Positions 10,974 to 48,879 of a stretch of 53,931 bases of DNA are shown here, one piece after another. Every line of letters starts with the position of its first letter. Position 1 is the first letter of the stretch. Below the pieces are notes generated by a model. That model did no database searches, was not told the origin of the DNA, and saw only the letters and a program-made list of their open reading frames with translations. The stretch covers positions 1 to 53,931 of the forward strand of contig JAZDCZ010000075.1 in the NCBI GenBank assembly GCA_036679605.1, written 5' to 3'. The position numbers were made by a program, and so were the translations under genes. The stretch comes from Gemmatimonadota bacterium. Lineage in GTDB: Bacteria > Gemmatimonadota > Gemmatimonadetes > Gemmatimonadales > GWC2-71-9.

Positions 10974-12215
10974 TCACTCGTGACGTAACGCCTCTACTGG
11001 ATCGAGCCGGGACGCTCTTGCCGCCGGCAACAATCCGAATATCACCCCGATTCCGACGGACACCGAGGTAGCTACAACCGCGCTCCAGATTGGCACGCCA
11101 GATGTAAGTCCCAACACGGATTTGAGAACCTGGCCGGCTCCCAGCCCGACTCCGATTCCGATGGCTCCACCCAAGAATGTGAGGGTCGCGGCCTCAATAA
11201 GAAACTGCCACATGATTTCTCGACGTGTTGCTCCAAGCGCCTTACGCACGCCGATCTCTTGAGTGCGGTCGGTTACGGAAACCATCATTATTGCCATGAC
11301 GCCTATTCCACCCACCAAGAGGGCAATGCTGGACAATGCTATCATGACCAGAAAGAACGCACTAGTCAGTTGGTCGAATATTTTGAGGATTTGATCGGAA
11401 GTTAAGAGATCGAACGAATTGGGGTCACCTGATCTCAGTCCACGCATGCGGCGCAGTTGCAGTATGGTTGCATCCATGGCATCTGGCACCGACACACCCT
11501 CCTTGGGCTTCACGATGATGATGAGTGCATTGGTTTCGTCGTGCCGGTACGCACGCTTTACGGTCAAGAACGGAATGATCGCCGCGATCTCTTGTCCTGG
11601 CGGCTGGAAGATGTTCTCTGGGGTTTGGTACAATCCAACTACCCGGAGCGGCTTACCGCCGATCCTGAGGGTTTGCCCAACCGGCTGGCGCCTACCAAAG
11701 ACACGATTTGCGGCACCTTTCTCAAGAACAACTACGGGTGCTCCCGATCTCATTTCGGCTCGTGTGAAGATCCGTCCGGCAAGTAGCTCTCCACCCAGCA
11801 CTTCCATGAATCGATCGTCTGCACCGAATACACTCGTCAGTTGTGTGCGGACACCCTCGAATTCCAGTCGCTCGAGAACTTGGACCCAGATAGCTGCATA
11901 GTGGATCTCGGGGAGCCGCGAGATTGCCTCACCCTCGTCGGCCTTCAGGACCGGACGGATTCGGACTTCCCTTGGGAGTGCGTCGGGGTTGACCGGCGTC
12001 TGTGAAAAGAACCGTAGGATGCGGAACGTAGTTGGCCCCACGATTTCCAACGTGCTCACTATCTGGTCGCGAATGCCGGCCACCATCGAAGCCATCGCCA
12101 TGACGGTAGATACACCGATGACCACGCCCAAAATGGTTAGACCGGAGCGCAGCTTGCGTTCCCATATTGCAGATAGAGCGATGCTGACGCCTTCAGAAAG
12201 CTGTACCAGCTTCAA
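10974..12215 (-). CDS. MacB/FtsX-family ABC permease (type B, copy 2)
   Basis: LRSGLTILGVVIG, VGGIGVMAIMMVSVTDRTQEIGVRKALGA, LDPVEALRHE; likely TTG start at 12215. Confidence 0.92.
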   Translation of the reverse strand: MKLVQLSEGVSIALSAIWERKLRSGLTILGVVIGVSTVMAMASMVAGIRDQIVSTLEIVGPTTFRILRFFSQTPVNPDALPREVRIRPVLKADEGEAISRLPEIHYAAIWVQVLERLEFEGVRTQLTSVFGADDRFMEVLGGELLAGRIFTRAEMRSGAPVVVLEKGAANRVFGRRQPVGQTLRIGGKPLRVVGLYQTPENIFQPPGQEIAAIIPFLTVKRAYRHDETNALIIIVKPKEGVSVPDAMDATILQLRRMRGLRSGDPNSFDLLTSDQILKIFDQLTSAFFLVMIALSSIALLVGGIGVMAIMMVSVTDRTQEIGVRKALGATRREIMWQFLIEAATLTFLGGAIGIGVGLGAGQVLKSVLGLTSGVPIWSAVVATSVSVGIGVIFGLLPAARASRLDPVEALRHE

Positions 12216-12222
12216 GGCTCTA

Positions 12223-13467
12223 TCACTCTTGCCGCAGTGCCACGATGGGGTCAAGCCTTGCTGCTCGCGTGGCAGGGTACACACCAAAGACAAGGCCGAC
12301 ACTGGTGCCGATGAACAACGCCAGAGCCGCGGACCACAAGGTTACGCGGGCTGGGAGCGGCGTCGTGACTGCGACTAACTGGGCTAGGCTCCACCCAGTG
12401 AACACGCCCAGAAGTCCGCCGATAGTCGCAAGAACTACCGCCTCCGCTAGAAACTGTCCGGCGATGTCGCGTCGTCTGGCGCCCAGAGATTTTCTGATGC
12501 CGATCTCGCGGGTGCGCTCGTTGACCGACATCAGCATGATGTTCATGATCACAATGCCCCCGACAATGATGCCGATAGCAACCACGGCGGGTACCACGGT
12601 AAAAAGGACTTTGGTCAGGCTCTTCCAGAACGCTACGAGCCCTTCGGCAGTGTCGACGGTGAAATCGTTTGGTTCGCCAGGGCGGAGTCGGTGGGCGGTG
12701 CGCATCGCCTCTTCGGCTCGGGCCATGCCATCGGCGACCAGAGTTGCAGTCGGCATCTTGACGGATATGACCGTCGTTAGTCGGCGGCCATAGACACTCT
12801 CGAATACTCTGAGCGGTAGCAGTACAAAACCGTCCCACGATTGTCCGAGCACAGTACCCTTCTTCCCGACGACTCCCTTGACGGTTACCAGGAGGCGTCC
12901 AACGCGAACCTTCTTGCCGACCGCCTGCTCCAGATCATCGAACAACTTTGATGCGACGTCGTATCCCAGAACTGCCGCGTAGCGTCGCTCCAACACGTCA
13001 ATGTCGGTGAGAGGCTCTCCAGCAACGATCTCATAGTCTTGGACCTCTTGATACGGCGCCGTGATCCCAAGGACCAGCACGTCACCAATGGATCTGTTGC
13101 GCCAGCTGACATCGGCAATGGGTGTAGGCCAGCCGGATTGGAGCGCTATTGCGTCGGCGGCCGGAACAGCCTGCTGTACGAACCCCACATCCTGGCGCGC
13201 AATTTTCGGCCTGCGTTGCAACTCGCGCCAATCTTCTTCATCGATCAACCCTATGGAAATAGGCGTACGGCGAATCTGAAACGCATTCTTGCCCACTATC
13301 GCGCCGGCAATGTTTTCCTTCACGTACGCATTCATTCCCTGAATGATTGCCACAACTGCTACGAGAAAGGCAACGGATACTATTATCCCGAGCAACGTGA
13401 AGAACGACCTGAGCTTGTGGCCCAAGACGGCTTGAAACGCGAGGCGACATGCTTCGGAGAACGGCAT
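12223..13467 (-). CDS. MacB/FtsX-family ABC permease (type A, copy 2)
   Basis: KLRSFFTLLG, VGGIVIMNIMLMSVNERTREIG, LDPIVALRQE. Confidence 0.93.
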   Translation of the reverse strand: MPFSEACRLAFQAVLGHKLRSFFTLLGIIVSVAFLVAVVAIIQGMNAYVKENIAGAIVGKNAFQIRRTPISIGLIDEEDWRELQRRPKIARQDVGFVQQAVPAADAIALQSGWPTPIADVSWRNRSIGDVLVLGITAPYQEVQDYEIVAGEPLTDIDVLERRYAAVLGYDVASKLFDDLEQAVGKKVRVGRLLVTVKGVVGKKGTVLGQSWDGFVLLPLRVFESVYGRRLTTVISVKMPTATLVADGMARAEEAMRTAHRLRPGEPNDFTVDTAEGLVAFWKSLTKVLFTVVPAVVAIGIIVGGIVIMNIMLMSVNERTREIGIRKSLGARRRDIAGQFLAEAVVLATIGGLLGVFTGWSLAQLVAVTTPLPARVTLWSAALALFIGTSVGLVFGVYPATRAARLDPIVALRQE

Positions 13468-13534
13468 CTCGAGAATCTAAAGTGATCTTGGTCGGAGGGC
13501 AGTCCAACCGGGTATAGCGAGGGTCGGGCGTCGC

Positions 13535-14755
13535 TTATTCGTACCGCAACGCTTCCACCGGATCGAGTCTGGCAGCTCGGGCGGCCGGGTAGAGCCCGAA
13601 GATCACACCCGTAAAGATTGATGCACTCAAAGCGGCAACAATCGACCAGAATGGGACCTCGGCCGGAATCGGTGTCGTGCTTGAAACGATGAGGGTGATG
13701 GCTCCGCCGAGAATCATCCCGGCCGCGCCACCGATTGCCGTGAGCGTGGATGCTTCAACGAGAAACTGCCAAAGGATTGCCCTGCGCCTCGCTCCAAGTG
13801 CCTTACGGACTCCTATTTCCCGCGTGCGCTCGGTGACAGAAATCATCATGATGGCAACCACTCCGATTCCACCGACCATCAATCCTATGGAAGAGAGCGC
13901 CATCATGACCAGGAAGAACATTCCGGTGATCTGATTCCAATTCTGTAAGGCCTTTTCCTGCGTGAAGACACCGAAGTTGTTGTCTTCACGTGGGCCCAAA
14001 CCCCTGATCGAGCGCATGGCAGCAGTAACGTTCTCGGTCGCATCACTGACCGCAACGCCAGCGGCTGGCGAGATGAAGAAGGTAAGTCCACCCCTCCACG
14101 TTCGAACGTGCTTGCGAAAAGCCCCTTGAGGAATTGTTACTTGTGGACGATTGCCTGTGCCGAAGATGTCGGGCGGTGGTTGGTGTACGCCTATCACTTT
14201 GAACGGTACCCCCGCGACCTTGATGTAGTGGCCGATGGGATCTCGCAAGCCAAACAGTTCTCCTGCAGCTTTCTCATTGATAACCACGACGCGCGTATTC
14301 GAGCGCGACTCAAGCTCGGTGTACGATCGGCCAGGGAAAATGTCTCCGCCAGTTACAACCGGCCATCCTGCGCTGTATCCCAGCACCGCGACGGAGTTGA
14401 GCTTTTGATTCTCGAACTCCACTGGGCGGCTGGTTTGCTCATGCATGACTACGATCGACACGCTCGGCAGTCTACTCAACCGTTCTGCCTCCGCTGTCGT
14501 CAGGGGCGGCGCATGCCACCGGTCGTCGTCATCGAACGTAACGCCGGTTTGCGGAGACCGCTGGACGAAGAACGTGCGCGGGCCTAGCTGCTCGAAAATT
14601 TCCTCCACGCCACTGTTGATACCGGAAATCATTGATCCGATTACCATTACGACCATTACGCCGATAGCGATTCCCAGAATGGTCAGCGCAGCTCGCACTT
14701 TGTTGGCCCGGAGCGATCCAAGTGCGATGCCGACACCTTCAAAGATTTGCGTCAA
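13535..14755 (-). CDS. MacB/FtsX-family ABC permease (type B, copy 1)
   Basis: RAALTILGIAIG, VGGIGVVAIMMISVTERTREIG, LDPVEALRYE. Confidence 0.93.
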   Translation of the reverse strand: MTQIFEGVGIALGSLRANKVRAALTILGIAIGVMVVMVIGSMISGINSGVEEIFEQLGPRTFFVQRSPQTGVTFDDDDRWHAPPLTTAEAERLSRLPSVSIVVMHEQTSRPVEFENQKLNSVAVLGYSAGWPVVTGGDIFPGRSYTELESRSNTRVVVINEKAAGELFGLRDPIGHYIKVAGVPFKVIGVHQPPPDIFGTGNRPQVTIPQGAFRKHVRTWRGGLTFFISPAAGVAVSDATENVTAAMRSIRGLGPREDNNFGVFTQEKALQNWNQITGMFFLVMMALSSIGLMVGGIGVVAIMMISVTERTREIGVRKALGARRRAILWQFLVEASTLTAIGGAAGMILGGAITLIVSSTTPIPAEVPFWSIVAALSASIFTGVIFGLYPAARAARLDPVEALRYE

Positions 14756-14758
14756 TCT

Positions 14759-15997
14759 CTACTCCTGCCTCATGGCATCTACGGGATCCAGCCTTGCAGC
14801 GCGGCTGGCTGGGTATAGGCCGGCAGAAACGCCCACACCCGCCCCTACGAGCACGCCCAAGCCGATGGACCATGGAGCGACGGTAGCCGGCAGCGGTGTA
14901 GTTGCGTTGATGACTCCGGCCATGCCGAGTCCCGTGACTATTCCCAATCCGGCGCCTATTGTGGCCAGCGCGGCAGATTCTACCAGGAATTGGCGCAAAA
15001 TGTCGCGGCGTCTCGCGCCCAAGGCTTTTCGGATCCCGATCTCCCTGGTGCGTTCGGCGACGGACATGAGCATGATGTTCATGATCACTATTCCTCCGAC
15101 GACGAGAGAAATACTTACCAAGCCAGGGCCAATTGCCAGCATCATCGTCTTGATCTTTCCCCAGAAATCCAGCACGGCCGACGCGTTCTCAACGGAAAAA
15201 TTGTTGTCTTCCTTTGGTCGTAGGCTTCTCCGGCTGCGCATGACGGACTCGACTTCCGCCATCGCAGTTTCCATGTCTGCCTCGGATGTCGTTTTCACGA
15301 GAAACTGATCGACTACCCGAGGTGGGGCCACGAATCGCTTGATGGGAGACATAGCGGGCGCCACGGCAAATTCGTCCAGTGAGAATCCGAATATGTCGCC
15401 CTGACTCTCGACCACTCCCACTACACGGTAGGGGAGGCCTCTAATTTTGATTTCGCTCCCAATCGGATCGCTATTCTCAAAGAGTCCCTCGGCCACCTTG
15501 CTGCCGAGCACGACCACTGGAAGCCCTGCTCGGGCCTCCTGGGTACTGAACGGACGACCAGTTTCTATTGTCCAGCTCTTTAGCTCAAAGTAGGCTTCGC
15601 TTGCACCGATAATCCTTATTTGGGCCGATTTGTCCGCATAGGATACTTCCGCGCTTCCACCTGACTCCCAGGATGTAGTGGCCGGAACGGTCAGCGCGGC
15701 GTCTACTGCCCGAGCATCATCGTATGTGATGCGGGGTCGGCGTATCCAACTGCGCCAAGTCTCTCTTGTTACGTCACCCCCGCTGAAGTCAGGGTAGCGC
15801 CGTAGCTGGAACGTATTGGCCCCCAAGAGATTGCCGGCCACTTGTTCGGTCATGTAAGTGTTCATGCCCTCGACAATCGTGACCACGGCGATCAGGAACG
15901 CCACCCCAACGAAAACCCCGATTACTGAAAAACCGCTTTTCAGTTTCTGCGACCAGATCACTCGGAACGCCAGGCGGAATGCTTCGGTAAAAGGCAT
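14759..15997 (-). CDS. MacB/FtsX-family ABC permease (type A, copy 1)
   Basis: KLKSGFSVIG, VGGIVIMNIMLMSVAERTREIG, LDPVDAMRQE. Confidence 0.93.
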   Translation of the reverse strand: MPFTEAFRLAFRVIWSQKLKSGFSVIGVFVGVAFLIAVVTIVEGMNTYMTEQVAGNLLGANTFQLRRYPDFSGGDVTRETWRSWIRRPRITYDDARAVDAALTVPATTSWESGGSAEVSYADKSAQIRIIGASEAYFELKSWTIETGRPFSTQEARAGLPVVVLGSKVAEGLFENSDPIGSEIKIRGLPYRVVGVVESQGDIFGFSLDEFAVAPAMSPIKRFVAPPRVVDQFLVKTTSEADMETAMAEVESVMRSRRSLRPKEDNNFSVENASAVLDFWGKIKTMMLAIGPGLVSISLVVGGIVIMNIMLMSVAERTREIGIRKALGARRRDILRQFLVESAALATIGAGLGIVTGLGMAGVINATTPLPATVAPWSIGLGVLVGAGVGVSAGLYPASRAARLDPVDAMRQE

Positions 15998-40918: not shown

Positions 40919-40943
40919 CGGTATATGCTCAATATGGCATATT
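40915..40943 (+). promoter_or_regulatory. Putative sigma70 promoter and operator of the TA operon
   Basis: TTGACG-N17-CATATT with inverted repeat ATATGC-N8-GCATAT (40923-40942). Confidence 0.6.
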
Positions 40944-41323
40944 TTGTTAGACCTGAGCCGGGGCTGCGACCGCTCCTCTGGGTCGGATCGTCCCTCAAGG
41001 ATCTTCGCAGCTTTCCGGAAGCGGTGCAGGACGTCATGGGCTACGCGCTGTTCCGAGCCCAGTTCGGCGAACGGCATCCGGCGGCCAAGGCGCTACGCGG
41101 AACATTGCGCGGGCTCATGGAGATCGTGGACGAGTATAGAGGCAATGCATACAGGGTGATCTACACAACGAAACTCACAGGTGCGATCTACGCGCTCCAT
41201 GTTTTTCGGAAGAAGGCGACCAGAGGAATTGCGACGCCCAAACATGAGGTAGAGCTTATGCAGGCGCGCTATCGCTGGGCTAAGCAGCATCACCATCGGC
41301 GGCTGGGAGATGGCAATGGCTGA
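40925..41323 (+). CDS. Type II toxin, RelE/ParE superfamily (Gp49/DUF891, HigB-like); true start uncertain
   Basis: W.GSS.KDL..FP..V, YRVIY and YALHVF.KK...GI.TPK motifs; upstream of an HTH antitoxin. Confidence 0.9.
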   Translation: MLNMAYFVRPEPGLRPLLWVGSSLKDLRSFPEAVQDVMGYALFRAQFGERHPAAKALRGTLRGLMEIVDEYRGNAYRVIYTTKLTGAIYALHVFRKKATRGIATPKHEVELMQARYRWAKQHHHRRLGDGNG

Positions 41324-41645
41324 TAGGACAAAGATTACCAAGAGCAGTGGCAACGTGTTTGCCGACCTCGGGCTGGGGGATCCCGAGAAGCGGTTGGCCA
41401 AGGCCGAACTCGCGAGTGCCATCGGCCGCATTATACAGCAGCGTCGATTGACTCAACTTGCAGCCGCCGAGATTCTGGGAGTCGATCAACCGAAGGTCTC
41501 GCACCTCTTGCACGGGCGGCTTGCAGGGTTTTCGACGGATCGGTTGCTCGGTTTCTTGACCGCTCTAGGTCGTGACGTGCAGATTGTGCTGAAGAGGACG
41601 CCGCGTTCCAGACGGCAGGGCCGAGTGCGTGTCGTGAGCGGGTGA
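41310..41645 (+). CDS. XRE-family HTH antitoxin (HigA-like)
   Basis: SSGNVFADLG, LTQ..AAE.LG.DQPKVS.L..G and FS.DRL..FL.ALG.DV.I motifs; overlaps the toxin end. Confidence 0.92.
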   Translation: MAMADRTKITKSSGNVFADLGLGDPEKRLAKAELASAIGRIIQQRRLTQLAAAEILGVDQPKVSHLLHGRLAGFSTDRLLGFLTALGRDVQIVLKRTPRSRRQGRVRVVSG

Positions 41646-41707: not shown

Positions 41708-42052
41708 TCAGTTCTTGGCTGTCATGCCTCCAACGACAGCGCCAATGAGCAGTGGCACCACGTTCAAGACCGATACAACAAGGTTGCCCATTCCCGCAAT
41801 CATTCCAAAGAGTGCGCCAATTATGGGTATCCACCCAAGAAGTCCACCCAGAATGATAGTCAAGAGCCAGAGAATGAAAGCCGGTAGCAGGGCCGCCGCT
41901 ATGGCAGGGCCGACGCCCCCCGCCTTTCTGCCACCCACGAAGCCGGCAATCAGCCCACCCACGACCGGTATCCAGAATAGGACCGCCGATAGGCCGATCA
42001 TCCATGCCATGGCGCTTGGAATGTTACCGCGTCGTGCTACGTAGGTCGTCAT
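41708..42052 (-). CDS. Small Gly-rich membrane protein
   Basis: 3-4 hydrophobic Gly-rich helices (IPVVGGLIAGFVGG; IGAVVGG); GGAG RBS. Confidence 0.8.
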   Translation of the reverse strand: MTTYVARRGNIPSAMAWMIGLSAVLFWIPVVGGLIAGFVGGRKAGGVGPAIAAALLPAFILWLLTIILGGLLGWIPIIGALFGMIAGMGNLVVSVLNVVPLLIGAVVGGMTAKN

Positions 42053-42317: not shown

Positions 42318-42671
42318 ATGCAACTGGTGCCTGAAGATAAATCGAACCGGCGGTCCGCGGGCCGGCGCGAAAAGGGTGACCGCAGACGCAGTAGTGAGCG
42401 CCGAGGGCGTGATCGGCGATTGGGTTCGGATGAGGATGTCGCCAGGCGCTTGCCGGACGATTTCATGCGGGCACGGGGAACGCCGGGAGATCGGACCATG
42501 AGCCTGGTAAACCTCTATTGGACGGCTACAGAGGAAGCGGATCGGTTGGAACTGGCCCAGGCGCTGTTACCCATCCTAGAGGAACTAGCTGGGCCCTCCG
42601 AGCGCGTCACAGACGGTCACAGGCGCTCTTGCCAGGAGCTTGTGGTGCATTGGGCAGCTCGTCTGCGGTAG
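42318..42671 (+). CDS. Hypothetical protein with N-terminal tandem [D/E/N]RR repeats and a helical C-terminal domain
   Basis: GGAGG RBS; NRRSAGRREKGDRRRSSERRGRDRR. Confidence 0.75.
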   Translation: MQLVPEDKSNRRSAGRREKGDRRRSSERRGRDRRLGSDEDVARRLPDDFMRARGTPGDRTMSLVNLYWTATEEADRLELAQALLPILEELAGPSERVTDGHRRSCQELVVHWAARLR

Positions 42672-43022
42672 CTATTTCCGAGCGTTCATGAATGCTTCTG
42701 CGTCTCTGACTCCGCGCTGAAGCCGGGACTCAAATCCGGCTAACGCGGGCTCGCTGCAAGCGTCGAGCAGGTTGCGAAGGCGCTCGACTATAGACTCGAC
42801 ATCAAGAGGTGGGTGCGTGGCAATGGTGTCCTTCCATAACTCCTCCGCATCATCATGGAATGTCACCACGGCACCGAGTTCATCGTCGCTGAAGCGATCT
42901 CGTATGATGTCCTCTCTCAAGTCTGATACGATGCCGCCGAGCAACATTTGGATGGACTCCCGTGTTCCCCACCCGATACTCGATATGCGCTTGACGAAAT
43001 CAGCGCGGCGATTCTCGCTCAT
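42672..43022 (-). CDS. Hypothetical acidic helical protein
   Basis: ATG at 43022 with AAGGA RBS; amphipathic helices; stop abuts the stop of 42318..42671. Confidence 0.6.
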   Translation of the reverse strand: MSENRRADFVKRISSIGWGTRESIQMLLGGIVSDLREDIIRDRFSDDELGAVVTFHDDAEELWKDTIATHPPLDVESIVERLRNLLDACSEPALAGFESRLQRGVRDAEAFMNARK

Positions 43023-43198
43023 GCCACCGTCCTTTTCGTGGAGTGTTGCATTGCTGCAATATACAGACGGGCCCTCGACGCCGGGCTCGTGACAGCGATT
43101 CGAGGCCGAATATTTTCCAATTTGGACGATTGTCCCTAAATTAGAACGTCCCAGTTCCGATCCGTCCAAGGCGGACAGATCTAATTGGAGGTGCTTGA

Positions 43199-43717
43199 TT
43201 GGCGATGACTGAACTAACCACGGTCCTTATCGAGCAGCGAGTACGCACTGCTCTCGAGAAATGGGTGTCGGACCCAGATAAGATGGTGCAATGGGTCGCG
43301 ACTCAAGATCCCGATTTATCGGAAGATGCAATTCGGGCATGCCTGGCGAGGGCGACAATACTGGTGGATCTCAGGGCCGATACCGAACGCTCTGCAAAGG
43401 CTGCCAAGGGAAGCGAGACCGATTTGCCGATGTCGGATACCGAATTGCGCGTGGCAACTTGGCTCCAGCAAAGGGCCTTTGAGCGGTGGATGAGAGGGCA
43501 GGCCTCCTCGGGCGAATCGTACAGAGTGGGAGACCGGCGGCATGGAGACTCACGTCGTGGCGGGCAGGAGCAGTGTTTGCGCCACGGTGATCGCAGACGA
43601 GTGGTGACGCAAGTGAGTACCGACCGCCGGATTAGAGCTGCAAGGCGGTTGGGCGACAGGCGCTCGAGAACCGAGCGGAGGGCTTTGACCGACAGGCGCC
43701 TTGCGGCGGCGAGCTAG
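43199..43717 (+). CDS. Hypothetical protein with C-terminal tandem DRR/ERR repeats
   Basis: GGAGGT RBS; GDRRHGDSRR...GDRRR...TDRRIRAARRLGDRRSRTERRALTDRR. Confidence 0.75.
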   Translation: MAMTELTTVLIEQRVRTALEKWVSDPDKMVQWVATQDPDLSEDAIRACLARATILVDLRADTERSAKAAKGSETDLPMSDTELRVATWLQQRAFERWMRGQASSGESYRVGDRRHGDSRRGGQEQCLRHGDRRRVVTQVSTDRRIRAARRLGDRRSRTERRALTDRRLAAAS

Positions 43718-43843
43718 ACTACAAAGACCACGGGTACCCTAGCGGATGCGTTGACGGTCAGGCATCTTTAGGTGCCCTAGAGGAGAGTCCCTGCCGAGGG
43801 ACATGGCGAGCCAAACCGACCACTTGGCTGAGGAGTCGATCGA

Positions 43844-44095
43844 ATGGACGAGGTAGCCCTGAAGGAGCGCGGTAGCGATGACAGGCGAGGCAAGCGGGAG
43901 CGCAGGGTTGGGGTAGATCGGCGCGACAGTGAGCGCCGGGGCCTACTATTAGTCCGCGAGATTGGCCAAAGAGCCGGCAGCCAGCGCCGCGGGTTGGACT
44001 GGCGTAGAGGCCGGGAGCGCCGTGACGATAATGAACGAAGGATAGTTGCCAGCGCGCCGAGGTCCTGGAGACAGGGCGCCCAAGCGCAAGGCTGA
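43844..44095 (+). CDS. Small protein composed largely of [D/E]RR repeats
   Basis: GAGGAG RBS 8 nt upstream; DDRRGKRERRVGVDRRDSERR...SQRRGLDWRRGRERRDDNERR. Confidence 0.7.
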   Translation: MDEVALKERGSDDRRGKRERRVGVDRRDSERRGLLLVREIGQRAGSQRRGLDWRRGRERRDDNERRIVASAPRSWRQGAQAQG

Positions 44096-44138
44096 TTGTT
44101 CCCGCCCGAACTCTTACTTTCAACAAGGAGGTGATCCA

Positions 44139-44201
44139 TTGTCTAGCCAAGAAACCGTTTGCAACCCGGCATGGGCAAGCGATCGCCGCACCGGTACCTG
44201 A
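44139..44201 (+). CDS. Putative 20-aa small ORF MSSQETVCNPAWASDRRTGT
   Basis: TTG start directly after AAGGAGGTGATCCA (44125-44138), the exact complement of the conserved 16S rRNA 3' end. Confidence 0.5.
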   Translation: MSSQETVCNPAWASDRRTGT

Positions 44202-44284
44202 TTCGGACCGAATCGCTGAAACTTGACTGCGCCGGTCGACGCTGGTGAGGCGTCGTGCCGGATTGCAGAGGGTAACACAAAGAC

Positions 44285-44322
44285 ACGCCGCTGGTATTTC
44301 GGTACCGGCGGCGTTGTTTTTT
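44285..44322 (+). terminator. Intrinsic terminator
   Basis: ACGCCGCTGGTAT-TTCG-GTACCGGCGGCGT stem-loop followed by TGTTTTTT. Confidence 0.85.
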
Positions 44323-44324
44323 GG

Positions 44325-45125
44325 ATGCGTGACTTGCGATACCAGGAAATAGAGGCAACCCTCGCGATCTGTGCAGAGAACCCCGAAAGGGTCGTCGCGA
44401 AACTGCAGCAACTGTCGTCGATCGGTTCGTATGGTTTGAGGCCGATCCCCCCTCTCGCGATTGGCGATGTCTATCTGGATCTGGCCGGGCGCGAACTAGG
44501 AGAGCTAGGGCTGGGTCTGAGAATCAGGACTGTAGGCCAACAAACACTCATCACGCTCAAGGGTCCCAAGGATTTCGTCGTGGGCGGGGGAGCCAGTCGA
44601 GAGGAATTCGAGCGGCCATGGTCTCCTGAGACGCTTTTGTTAGTGCTCGACAGACTCGAGACCGCGGGCCTCGATGTACGGCGCCCTGGAGTAGGATTGC
44701 TCGGCAGAGATCCGTTGGAGGTGATGGCTGGGCTGGGGTTTGAGCCGACGCAGATACGTAAAACGAAGAGACGACCCCGTGACGTCGTTCATGAAGGTGA
44801 TCCCAGTACTGCGTTGGCGGAATTGGTGATCGATTCCGTAGCGTATGAAATCGGAGGCCGAACGATCTTGCATCACGAAATAGAGATCGAGGTGAAACCG
44901 GCCGGCGATATCACGGTCATGCAAACTGTTGCCGATGAGTTGCTAGCGTCCGAGCCTTGCTTGCGTAGATGGGATCACGGCAAGCGGGCTACCGGACGAG
45001 CAATTGAGGAATTGCTTGACCGTGGAAGCCTCGAAGAGCTGATAGGGGACGACGGATGCTTGAAATCGACAGCCTACAATGTAATCGAGCAGTGGATATG
45101 CGGATTGCGAAAGGAGCGCGCATGA
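44325..45125 (+). CDS. CYTH (triphosphate tunnel metalloenzyme / class IV adenylate cyclase-like) domain protein
   Basis: EIE near the N-terminus, DVYLD, LRIR, ITLKGP, REEFE and EIEIE motifs; ATG at 44325. Confidence 0.82.
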   Translation: MRDLRYQEIEATLAICAENPERVVAKLQQLSSIGSYGLRPIPPLAIGDVYLDLAGRELGELGLGLRIRTVGQQTLITLKGPKDFVVGGGASREEFERPWSPETLLLVLDRLETAGLDVRRPGVGLLGRDPLEVMAGLGFEPTQIRKTKRRPRDVVHEGDPSTALAELVIDSVAYEIGGRTILHHEIEIEVKPAGDITVMQTVADELLASEPCLRRWDHGKRATGRAIEELLDRGSLEELIGDDGCLKSTAYNVIEQWICGLRKERA

Positions 45126-45524: not shown

Positions 45525-45944
45525 CTACCAGGAGACAACGCTCCCCTCGATCTTGACAACGTCTGTGGCTGGCAGCGTGTCATAGTCCGCCTTGCTCAGA
45601 CTAAGTGTTGGTATTGTGGGATAGCCAAGCTCACGAGCCACAACAATGCCCAGGATGAGAATAGAATCGACCGTTCGTAGCAGAAGCCCTGATGGCGACG
45701 TGCCGTTGCGGAGCAGCTCAAGCATCACGGCGCTCGACGAGCTGGAGCCGATCGTCGCAGGTATCGCCAGGATTCGGCCGGCTATTTCTTGGCCGCTGTT
45801 CGGGTGTCGCGGATCTCCTATTATGCCGCGTTCGGGGTCCACGCCGCCCCAGAAGCTCAGCGGACCGTCCAATTTCAGGATCGATCCGGAGGCCGAACCG
45901 TCGATGAGGATATTACCGAGAACGGAATTGACGGTCAGCACCAA
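45525..45944 (-). CDS. Aconitase X swiveling (small) subunit, DUF126
   Basis: LSFWGGVDP..G.I.D.RHP and GSSSSS motifs. Confidence 0.9.
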   Translation of the reverse strand: MVLTVNSVLGNILIDGSASGSILKLDGPLSFWGGVDPERGIIGDPRHPNSGQEIAGRILAIPATIGSSSSSAVMLELLRNGTSPSGLLLRTVDSILILGIVVARELGYPTIPTLSLSKADYDTLPATDVVKIEGSVVSW

Positions 45945-47182
45945 AGATCTTCGTCGCGGGTGACTCTGCCTGTCTCGGCTGACGCCACACAGTCAGCGAG
46001 GCTGCCGTAGATGACCTGATACCCAGTGTTGGCGGGTGTGTAATGAGCGAACTTGCCGGAATTCGTCATCAAGACACCGCCTTTTTCGGGTAGTATCGGT
46101 GCGACCACTACACACGTATCGACCACGATCTCTATGGTCTCGATCAAGGGAGCTAGGTTGCCCTCGTTCTCCAGTTGTCGGAGAACATCGCGCGCGGTGC
46201 AAACGTAGAAGGGAATCGCAAAGCGCTTGCCGTGCGCGAGCCGCCTCAACTCCGCGAATTCAGATAGTGAAAAATGAGGACTGCCTACGGCAACGGCGTC
46301 GATTCGTTCCGCTTGCGTCGTAGAAAGCCAGTCACGGGATGAGCGGATCATGTCGGGCGTCAGTTGGATAACTCTGTTGGGCCGCACACCGTCGAGGGCC
46401 GTCGCGAGATCGGGCGCCTCCGGCGTTACTCCGGCAACGTGAAACAGGCCCACAGACCCGGAGGACGCTGCAGCCGCTCCCAATGCCTTGAGCTGGTCTT
46501 CTCCGGTATCGGGCGGCAGGCCGTCGATCACAGCGACCTCGTCACCGATCGTGGCACCCAGCCAGCTACCCAGCACGGGATAGAATACGTCTGACCGTTT
46601 GAGGTCGGGAGATAACTGGTCGGTATCGACCACGACTGTCGCTCGGCGATTCTCTTCTAGGTGTAAACCGGTCAGTGGAGCGCGACCGGTAATGGCGCAG
46701 CAGATATCGAGGAAGTCACCGTATCGGTTGGTACGAGCACCCAGTACGGAATTCGCGAAGACAACTGCATTGCTTTCGCCCCAGGCGATCTGGTCACCAA
46801 TTTCGGGGCGGTACTCAATTTGGTAGGGGGCGCAGGTCCACGTTGGTCGGCAACCCATTCTTACGTACGCCTCCATCAGGCGTCGTGACATTTCGGTGCG
46901 GTGAGGATCGGCACGAACCCGGTTCGGATGGATCAGGTCTAGGGCGCCCACGTTTAACGTGGATGGTACTCGGACCGTACCACCACCAGCCACAAGTCGG
47001 TCGGCAAACTCGACACCGCCGTCACCGTGGTAGAGGCAGCTATCTATATGGCTCGACTTGATCTCGACCAGTTCATCAGCCTCCAGGAGGTTTGCCATTT
47101 CCACGACTATCCGCATGGCCATCGCATCCGATTCTCCGGATTCCCCTGCGGCGATCGCCTTCTCCTGGTCGGTGAGGTGCAT
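45935..47182 (-). CDS. Aconitase X catalytic (large) subunit, DUF521
   Basis: HIDSCLYHG, TWTCAPY, WGESNAV.FANSVLGARTNR, G.TPEA, GSPH, DTC and TNSGK motifs; ATG at 47182. Confidence 0.92.
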   Translation of the reverse strand: MHLTDQEKAIAAGESGESDAMAMRIVVEMANLLEADELVEIKSSHIDSCLYHGDGGVEFADRLVAGGGTVRVPSTLNVGALDLIHPNRVRADPHRTEMSRRLMEAYVRMGCRPTWTCAPYQIEYRPEIGDQIAWGESNAVVFANSVLGARTNRYGDFLDICCAITGRAPLTGLHLEENRRATVVVDTDQLSPDLKRSDVFYPVLGSWLGATIGDEVAVIDGLPPDTGEDQLKALGAAAASSGSVGLFHVAGVTPEAPDLATALDGVRPNRVIQLTPDMIRSSRDWLSTTQAERIDAVAVGSPHFSLSEFAELRRLAHGKRFAIPFYVCTARDVLRQLENEGNLAPLIETIEIVVDTCVVVAPILPEKGGVLMTNSGKFAHYTPANTGYQVIYGSLADCVASAETGRVTRDEDLWC

Positions 47183-47193
47183 TGAACCGGCGC

Positions 47194-48879
47194 TTATAAC
47201 TTGCCGTCGACCTTTGCCAGGATCTCGCTCTCGAGGTCTGCAGATCGCTGGTCGATTTGTTGTCCCCTCTCGATCATCTCTTTGGCGAATTGCCTGTCCT
47301 TGAGACCAGATGCGTTGATCTTGACGTTGAGGAACGCTCCCTTGACCGCAGAGCGTACGCATAGAGCACCGACACCTGCGTCGGATGCAGAATTCGGGTT
47401 ACCGATGTCGGCCATGATCTTTATGACTTCCATTGAGTCGGTAGCTCGGGTCATGACTCTCAGCGGGACTTCGATCGCGACCTTGGTCGCCTCCTCAATA
47501 GCAGTGTCTCGAGCTGCCTTTTCCGTTGCACTGCCGTTCGGCAGCGACAACGCATCCATTACCTGGTTGAAAGCGCAAGTATCCTCGTCCACGAGGTCCA
47601 GCAGTGCGTTGTAATGCTCCTTGCCCTTTTCTGCCCAATCTGAAAACTCTTCCCACCGGTCATCCCAGCCTCGTTTATGGGATGAGAGATTTGCGACCAT
47701 AGTTCCAAGTGCTGCTCCCATGGCGCCTACGGCGGCGGCTACGGATCCACCGCCAGGCGTAGCGGAGTCGGCCGCGGTCTGTCGTGTGAACTCAGCGAGA
47801 GACCTGTCTACGAGGCGGATACCGGAGTCCTTACGCATTGCGTACTCGATGATCTTTTCCTCCGGTTTGAATGGATTGAGTTCGTCCAATCCGAGGGACT
47901 TTATCGCAATCTTGATAATTTCGGCGTCGGGTATGCCGGTGGAGAGCTGTTGCTTTTTTAGGAAATACCTTCCGGCGTCAAGCATTGCCTTGAGTGGTAT
48001 CAGTCCTACGAGTTCTGAGCCAGTAACTCGCACCCCCCTTGCATCTGCTTTGCGGCAAACCTCGTCGAAGGCCACGTGTACCGGAGTCACCGCAATGTTC
48101 GTGAGGTTCATCGATATCTGCGCCACACCGTATTCCTCGATGAACCAGCCAATGGCTTTCACATTTTTGAGCGACCCTGGAATCCAACATGGGTTCCCGC
48201 TCTCGTCTCTTACTATGTTGCCGGTTAGAGCATTTCCCTCGCGCTTGATGCGGCCTTTTTCTCGTACGTCGAATGCGATCGCATTGGCGCGTCGAGTGGA
48301 CGTGCTGTTCAGGTTGACATTGTAGGCCACTAGGAAATCTCTGGCCCCGACTGCGGTGGCGCCGGCGCGTGGATTGAACTCTGCCGGTCCGAAGTCGGGT
48401 TTCCATTCAGGTTGACTGAGTTTTTCTTTCAACCCCTCGTATTCGCCGGCTCTCACATCGGCGAGGTTGGTTCTCTGCGGTGTGAGGGCGGCATGTTCGT
48501 AGCAGAACACGGCTATGCCCAACTCTTCTCCTATGCGCTGACCAAGACGCCGCGCGTACTCGACCGTTTCGTCCATCGTGATGCCGGATACGGGCACTAA
48601 AGGACAGACGTCGGTAGCGCCAAAACGAGGGTGTTCTCCCGTGTGTTTGCTCATGTCGATAAGTTCTGCGGCCTTGCGAACGACTCGCACGGCGGCCTCA
48701 ATGACATCGTCGGGCGCACCCACGAAGGTTACGACTGTTCGATTCGTTGCCTTGCCGGGATCGACGCCCAGTAATTTCACGCCGTCAGAGCCTTCGATTT
48801 GATTCGCTATCTGCTTGATAATTGATAGGTCATTCCCTTCGCTGAAGTTGGGAACGCATTCGATTAATGGAGTGGTCAT
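47194..48879 (-). CDS. ftcD: Bifunctional glutamate formimidoyltransferase / formimidoyl-THF cyclodeaminase
   Basis: ECVPNFSEG, HPRFGA.DV.P, SELVGL and TPGGGSVAA motifs; N..IN in the cyclodeaminase domain. Confidence 0.94.
   Translation of the reverse strand: MTTPLIECVPNFSEGNDLSIIKQIANQIEGSDGVKLLGVDPGKATNRTVVTFVGAPDDVIEAAVRVVRKAAELIDMSKHTGEHPRFGATDVCPLVPVSGITMDETVEYARRLGQRIGEELGIAVFCYEHAALTPQRTNLADVRAGEYEGLKEKLSQPEWKPDFGPAEFNPRAGATAVGARDFLVAYNVNLNSTSTRRANAIAFDVREKGRIKREGNALTGNIVRDESGNPCWIPGSLKNVKAIGWFIEEYGVAQISMNLTNIAVTPVHVAFDEVCRKADARGVRVTGSELVGLIPLKAMLDAGRYFLKKQQLSTGIPDAEIIKIAIKSLGLDELNPFKPEEKIIEYAMRKDSGIRLVDRSLAEFTRQTAADSATPGGGSVAAAVGAMGAALGTMVANLSSHKRGWDDRWEEFSDWAEKGKEHYNALLDLVDEDTCAFNQVMDALSLPNGSATEKAARDTAIEEATKVAIEVPLRVMTRATDSMEVIKIMADIGNPNSASDAGVGALCVRSAVKGAFLNVKINASGLKDRQFAKEMIERGQQIDQRSADLESEILAKVDGKL

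Follow-up and report, generated by a model that had tools for sequence, protein, structure and literature searches.

A tandem [D/E]RR repeat module of Gemmatimonadota and its possible role as a PilZ-independent c-di-GMP-binding tag

Three small genes of a Gemmatimonadota bacterium, here called g1, g2 and g3, encode proteins that are wholly or partly built from tandem [D/E]RR units. They are real genes in which the repeat is maintained at the protein level, and the module formed by the repeat is portable over unrelated domains. On present sequence evidence, we put the chances at about even that this module serves as a c-di-GMP-binding tag that acts independently of PilZ. Throughout, the window is the whole stretch of 53,931 nucleotides that was analysed; its own genome is referred to as G000, and G001, a genome of the same genus with a syntenic locus, was used as the reference.

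The repeat genes and their locus

The features of the locus, in the order of the window, are as follows.

41708..42052, minus strand: gene for a 114-aa hydrophobic protein, divergent from g1 and syntenic in G001
42318..42671, plus strand: g1, 117 aa, with an N-terminal RR block (residues ~10–34, half a module) and a four-helix domain (residues 38–116)
42672..43022, minus strand: gX, 116 aa, with no repeat and no Pfam family, convergent with g1 and divergent from g2
43199..43717, plus strand: g2, 170–172 aa, starting at TTG 43199 or ATG 43205, a helical remnant with a C-terminal full RR module (~43532–43699)
43844..44095, plus strand: g3, 83 aa, a stand-alone RR module
44115..44325, plus strand: rre-like small RNA with an extended Shine-Dalgarno (SD) sequence (44125–44138), a 20-codon reading frame (44139–44201) and a terminator (44285–44314)
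44325..45125, plus strand: CYTH-domain gene, 3' of the terminator, with synteny kept in G001 and G036

The sequence-only reading had described three dissimilar plus-strand reading frames with Arg-Arg pairs and ribosome-binding sites, the repeat being N-terminal in g1, C-terminal in g2 and nearly the whole of g3. All of this is borne out. RR pairs number 7 in g1, 8 in g2 and 8 in g3, an acidic residue standing before 3, 6 and 6 of them ([DE]RR), and a Shine-Dalgarno-like GGAGG/GAGGAG precedes each start. Their net charges are +4, +9 and +10. In g3 the units are spaced 6,6,5,17,11,6, and a DRR-x10-RRxxE element lies at residue 13.

This genome abounds in Arg-rich shadow frames, and single [DE]RR pairs occur near chance (107 genome segments versus 64–91 in shuffles), as might be expected if the repeats were neutral low-complexity sequence or the reading frames spurious. 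Such a reading is hardly credible and is already largely refuted. Compared with G001, dN/dS was 0.12 for g1, 0.25 for g2 and 0.10 for g3, values that are rough because dS is near saturation; two neighbouring control genes gave 0.08 and 0.11. Different codons are used at 40 of the 62 Arg residues common to the window and G001 proteins, the locus is syntenic in G001, and the unit spacing is fixed throughout the order. The earlier claim that codons vary between units and that the repeat is kept up at the protein level therefore holds, both from the codon differences within the genes and from the low dN/dS against G001. Expansion by DNA slippage was ruled out, as codons differ between units and between species, and a twin-arginine export signal was ruled out by eye, the RR pairs having no hydrophobic segment after them.

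The arrays are also rare. At least two [DE]RRx2-5[DE]RR matches were found in six genome segments, three of them g1–g3, and three shuffles gave 1, 4 and 1. Read in six frames, the genome yields 133,896 segments, of which three hold six [DE]RR within 60 aa; two of the three are g2 and g3. The window has a single match to the four-unit DNA pattern, and none of 100 shuffles has any. Two more repeat genes lie elsewhere in the genome (C276 and C188). G001 has an ortholog of g3, and G036 has a homolog in the corresponding place. A profile search with the g3 alignment over 1.84 billion representatives returned only seven matches, so that family size is understated by it; the atlas matches of g3 score below 0.9 and are a lead only. 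No solved structural relative of the repeat was found, the one match having E = 4.9.

Outside the repeat, g1 was modelled as an all-helical protein, with pLDDT above 90 over residues 41–117 and of about 51–68 before them. It has no Pfam match, and its helical domain gave no Foldseek match at E ≤ 0.001 (best Z 6.5). This four-helix domain (window 42429–42665) represents an unnamed family with four copies in G000, including C251, C401 and C88, and eight in G162; the repeat is present on some members, while most are without it. The second protein, g2, aligns to residues 164–320 of a 321-aa protein of G001. The N-terminal ~155-aa domain of this ortholog looks HsdR_N-like: it scores 0.91–0.93 to such clusters in the atlas, and its best Foldseek match was DrdV (E = 0.002), from a single-sequence model of low confidence (mean pLDDT 49); no Pfam match was obtained. 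The likeness to HSDR_N and HSDR_N_2 (PF04313, PF13588) lies in these atlas clusters and the weak fold match, whereas the catalytic residues look replaced by eye and the domain is absent from the g2 of the window. Since both forms start with the same four residues, the domain was probably lost in frame. The short form is also found in P0002 (83%) and P0003 (80%) and in part in P0004; an assembly artefact is unlikely, because P0002 and P0003 share this form. It may be that g2 is a decaying remnant of which the tail and helices are still under selection.

The sequence-only reading further took the three genes for a co-oriented cluster, a c-di-GMP sponge with two effectors that together form an undescribed module. 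They do lie on the same strand, but the conserved minus-strand gene gX between g1 and g2 had been overlooked. Because gX is tail-to-tail with g1 and head-to-head with g2, g1–g3 are not one operon. This gene is 76% identical in G001, its homologs at 56–58% in two other genera have no RR genes nearby, and homologs occur in 3 of 120 relatives. Of 60 relatives, one has a strong g2 homolog, and g1 homologs occur in 6 of 200; in the loci read outside the genus the homologs of g1, g2 and gX are not adjacent to one another, nor are those of g1 adjacent to g3 homologs. As a trio the genes were seen in no genome but G000 and G001, both of one genus, and G036, which keeps g3, the small RNA and the CYTH gene, has no other member of the trio within 12 kb upstream. 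A three-gene operon or system is thus ruled out by the convergent gX and by the lack of conserved linkage beyond close kin. The idea of a sponge with two effectors as a module is not supported, given that gX splits the genes, that their other domains are unrelated and that the trio is confined to the two genomes. What stands is that the repeat family is undescribed in the literature searched; the cluster as such is not a conserved system. Other genomes repeatedly have two repeat genes side by side, which together with the extra copies in G000 suggests local spread of the module. The local trio would be a genus-level pile-up of tagged genes and not a pathway.

Directly downstream of g3, the segment 44115–44325 looks like an rre-type small mRNA in its layout, with an extended SD, a weak start, a small reading frame and a terminator. 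Its conservation greatly exceeds that of the genes on either side. The 14-nt extended SD, the TTG start and the 20-codon frame are present in all seven aligned loci, and the long stem shows compensatory change in 14 of 50 pairs. Within the order, 35 of the 121 genomes match a model of this RNA; in Rfam no family reached its gathering score, and the weak match to CC2171 (E = 1.1) falls over the SD region. The small mRNAs rreB and rreR likewise have an extended SD up to a non-ATG start, a short reading frame and a terminator (PMC5711450, as far as its available text goes), from which the window RNA differs by its TTG, its 20 codons and its long covarying stem. The available text of that paper names only alphaproteobacterial orders for the rre small mRNAs, and its screen asked for at least 16 nt of complementarity. 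The small RNA varies independently of the repeat genes.

The surroundings of the locus contain several other gene groups. A Gp49/HTH_37 pair, which we take to be a HigBA-type toxin-antitoxin, lies at 40925–41645 on the plus strand and is also found in L004 (11417–12504); G001 has a different two-gene pair at this spot, RES/Xre-like by eye, suggesting a swap site. An aconitase X gene pair (45525–47362, minus strand) is also present in G036 and is absent from this spot in G001. Farther off, four tandem MacB/FtsX permease genes stand with an efflux adaptor and an outer-membrane factor (10974–15997, minus strand).

Shape, distribution and fusion partners of the module

The full module is about 60 residues long and consists of two blocks of [DE]RR units with a Val-rich spacer between them, the typical spacing in aligned members being 6,6,5,11 or 17,6,6,6. 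In 48 reading frames derived from the order, a set biased by its retrieval with profiles of the same spacing, the gaps between units were 6 (150 times), 5 (56), 11 (30), 12 (22) and 17 (17), so that almost every gap is 5, 6 or a sum of these, and half of these frames (24/48) contain [DE]RR-x10-RRxx[DE]. The module is predicted to be disordered.

The module profile gave 122 matches, spread over 53 of the order's 121 genomes. By family, the genomes with a match number 24 of 46 in the window's own family, 26 of 27 in a second and 2 of 47 in a third. A strict DNA pattern gave at least 119 metagenome loci; among the matches listed, 112 of 121 frames were true; they group into 56 clusters, in most of which the protein is small and stands alone or is a fusion to a small domain. 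In viral contigs the pattern matched once, apparently in a shadow frame. Literature searches (listings and the openings of abstracts) returned no description of a [D/E]RR repeat family, though the list of ARR proteins belonging to PMC5677366, a paper of which part was at hand, might include members. The commonest stand-alone RR gene is flanked by genes for YdjM and a Ser/Thr kinase, with FHA-trypsin genes close by (L173, L234, L023, L043 and others). In L228 and L279 a short conserved helical domain comes after the repeat; Planctomycetes presumably have a similar protein.

The longer carriers show what the module is attached to. Of the 122 matches within the order, 31 have an open frame of 200 aa or longer, and every one of these was read, some with Pfam and the rest by eye. 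Five are fused to a GGDEF domain with intact GGDE[FY] and RxxD, in two architectures that keep their own I-site. GGDEF fusions thus make up ~4% of the 122 matches, versus ~0.3% of genes as estimated from 4–18 GGDEF matches per genome. Another 12 of the 31 consist of the module, a Zn-ribbon and a receiver, with the acidic pair and the beta-5 Lys missing in 12 of 12; Pfam confirmed the receiver in three of the four that were scanned. Proteins with an RR module, Zn-ribbon and pseudo-receiver include L301, L302, L309, L310 and L315–L325, mostly of family f3.

Among 27 longer database matches there were seven cytidine deaminases, four class III adenylate cyclases, one receiver, one receiver-GGDEF, one PF00741 protein, which we take to be a gas-vesicle protein, and 13 unlabelled sequences. 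A looser pattern also finds the repeat in CheA and sigma-70 linkers. Individual carriers noted in these groups are P0015, P0020, P0021, P0022, P0027, P0029, L029, L045, L080 and L014, covering cytidine deaminase, class III adenylate cyclase, PF00741, CheA, sigma-70 and a 2-oxoacid dehydrogenase E2 linker.

Comparison with known c-di-GMP-binding motifs

The parallel first drawn with the switch loop of PilZ domains fails for most units: only those spaced by 5 fit [DEQ]RRxxxR, and the commonest form, [DE]RRxxx[DE]RR, is off by one residue. One [DEQ]RRxxxR-compatible site each was found in g1 and g3 and none in g2, which is the chance-level expectation in Arg-rich sequence. The second PilZ motif, [DN]xSxxG, has no site in g1, g2 or g3, and these proteins lack the beta-barrel of PilZ (PF07238) as well as its Pfam match, g1 being all-helical in its model. 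A PilZ remnant was ruled out from the absence of PF07238, in these proteins and in the window's genome, and of the second motif.

The window's genome has eight GGDEF matches and none to PilZ in Pfam. In the order as a whole, 14 of the 121 genomes have a PilZ match, a count that includes the unpublished genome G116, and two of the 14 also match the module. Within the window's own family, a comparison that does not rest on G116, the module is present in 0 of 8 PilZ-bearing genomes versus 24 of 38 others (Fisher p = 0.0012, kin not being independent). GGDEF was found in 61 of 61 genomes and is therefore uninformative as a correlate; family f2 has GGDEF in 12 of 12, yet the module in 2 of 47 and PilZ in 5 of 47.

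A closer likeness is offered by the Cle ARR and CSP peptides, which according to the portions of PMC7382256 and PMC5677366 at hand are, like the module, short, portable, unstructured peptides of DRR and RRxxD elements. The former describes a disordered 19-mer that binds a c-di-GMP dimer via DRR-x11-[RK]RxxD; CSP peptides shortened by one loop residue still bind (0.34–1.9 µM), and CSP needs Y163 and G165, the mutants having Kd values of 4.4 and 7.7 µM. The DRR-x10-RRxxE of g3 is one residue shorter than this motif. None of the three window proteins has the exact DRR-x11-[RK]RxxD, which four of the 63 family sequences do have, and a relaxed CSP match is absent from g2. Nor does the module contain the [YF]xGP[DE][RK]R, the stacking Tyr and the Gly needed by CSP: tandem [YF]xGP[DE][RK]R had no match in g1–g3 or in the 63 family sequences, four of which match a relaxed form. 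Single strict copies of the Cle motif open two distant members, L091 and L216. Cle/CSP has two units, whereas the module has 4–9 and is often stand-alone or N-terminal.

The host proteins differ too. In the available part of PMC5677366 the ARR is portable, the activation of Cle proteins is independent of phospho-switch residues, and 294 of 302 Cle ARR search matches are alphaproteobacterial and 91% CheY-like, in contrast with the module. No CheY-like receiver is present in g1–g3; receivers occur in the 12 pseudo-receiver relatives and in four receiver-GGDEF fusions, and the pseudo-receiver fusions echo the phosphorylation-independent Cle proteins.

Candidate ligands and implications

If the module is indeed a PilZ-independent c-di-GMP-binding tag, it would be disordered by itself and fold around the ligand. 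A four-unit block with DRR-x10-RRxx[D/E] would clamp an intercalated c-di-GMP dimer as the CleD peptide does, with Arg on the guanine edges and the acidic residues capping, and a full module would bind about two dimers. The protein g3 could then act as a free c-di-GMP binder or buffer, while g1 and g2 would have their otherwise unrelated domains gated by their tags. In a PilZ-poor lineage the module would be a general add-on receptor. Indirect support for c-di-GMP comes from the fusions to GGDEF and pseudo-receiver domains, the near match to the CSP motif and a distribution complementary to that of PilZ. Against it stand the failure of all exact known motifs in g1–g3, the GGDEF-bearing family f2 with hardly any module or PilZ, and the gene neighbourhoods, which lend no support: in 145 neighbour ORFs from 46 partly redundant loci there was no GGDEF, EAL or PilZ domain and one HD_5.

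The main rival to c-di-GMP binding is RNA binding. The module would then be a basic disordered RNA- or DNA-binding tail and g3 a small nucleic-acid chaperone or condensing protein, which we consider unlikely. The positive net charges of g1–g3 and the nuclease-like domain of the g2 ortholog would suit such a role, as would the position of g3 just 5' of the rre-like small RNA in G000, G001 and G036, although four of the five other-genus loci read have the small RNA without an adjoining RR gene. A loose four-unit pattern matched 96 ORFs, and nine of the 22 Pfam-labelled carriers among them are RNA proteins (DEAD 3, S1 4, uS3 1, RanBP Zn finger 1), one RNA-binding carrier coming from an archaeal record; c-di-GMP enzymes numbered zero in the same set. 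The periodicity of DRR alone is not diagnostic, because this pattern also finds RNA-binding proteins: the Arg/Gly/Asp tails of DEAD-box helicases, S1/PNPase and uS3 can have the same 6,6,5 [DE]RR pattern. They stand, however, on RNA-binding hosts and without the Val-rich spacer or two-block layout, and by eye they are Gly-rich with near-identical repeats. Under the stricter spaced pattern only seven of 121 matches, among those listed, were of this kind, no RNA-binding domain was seen in the 27 longer database matches or the 31 long in-order frames, and an acidic residue is paired with each RR of the module.

It is less likely again that the module binds another phosphate-rich ligand, such as polyphosphate, ppGpp, another cyclic nucleotide or an NTP, and couples the host enzymes to it. 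Gemmatimonadota store polyphosphate. Fusions to adenylate cyclase and cytidine deaminase outnumber those to GGDEF by 11 to 1 in the 27 longer matches, and a CYTH gene lies downstream in three genomes, but a terminator separates it from g3 and the small RNA. Arg/Asp pairs at fixed spacing would moreover suit the reading of guanine edges better than binding to a polyanion, to judge from the part of PMC7382256 at hand. A tag for protein interaction or modification, that is, a Ser/Thr kinase substrate or pseudo-substrate, a docking peptide or a degron, is slightly less probable still. The module is portable, and its commonest stand-alone locus adjoins a Ser/Thr kinase with FHA proteins near; this kinase arrangement comes mostly from a single ortholog group, no kinase adjoins the window locus, and the conserved columns of alignment A6 contain no Ser or Thr.

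Beyond c-di-GMP binding by the module itself, a broader proposal is that it constitutes a widespread, unrecognised class of c-di-GMP receptors replacing PilZ in much of Gemmatimonadota, with g3-like proteins as sponges and with c-di-GMP controlling the tagged cyclases, deaminases, CheA, sigma factors and pseudo-receivers. We regard this as doubtful, though worth stating. Were the ligand RNA, the module would be an ordinary basic tail. If c-di-GMP binding by the tag is true, many enzymes would be flagged as c-di-GMP-controlled by a 60-residue tag that is missed by Pfam and hidden by low-complexity corrections, and the module would be the first natural counterpart, in the searches made, of the engineered c-di-GMP-sequestering peptide. 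The genomes concerned have several diguanylate cyclases and mostly no PilZ, and a c-di-GMP-binding module would fill this receptor gap.
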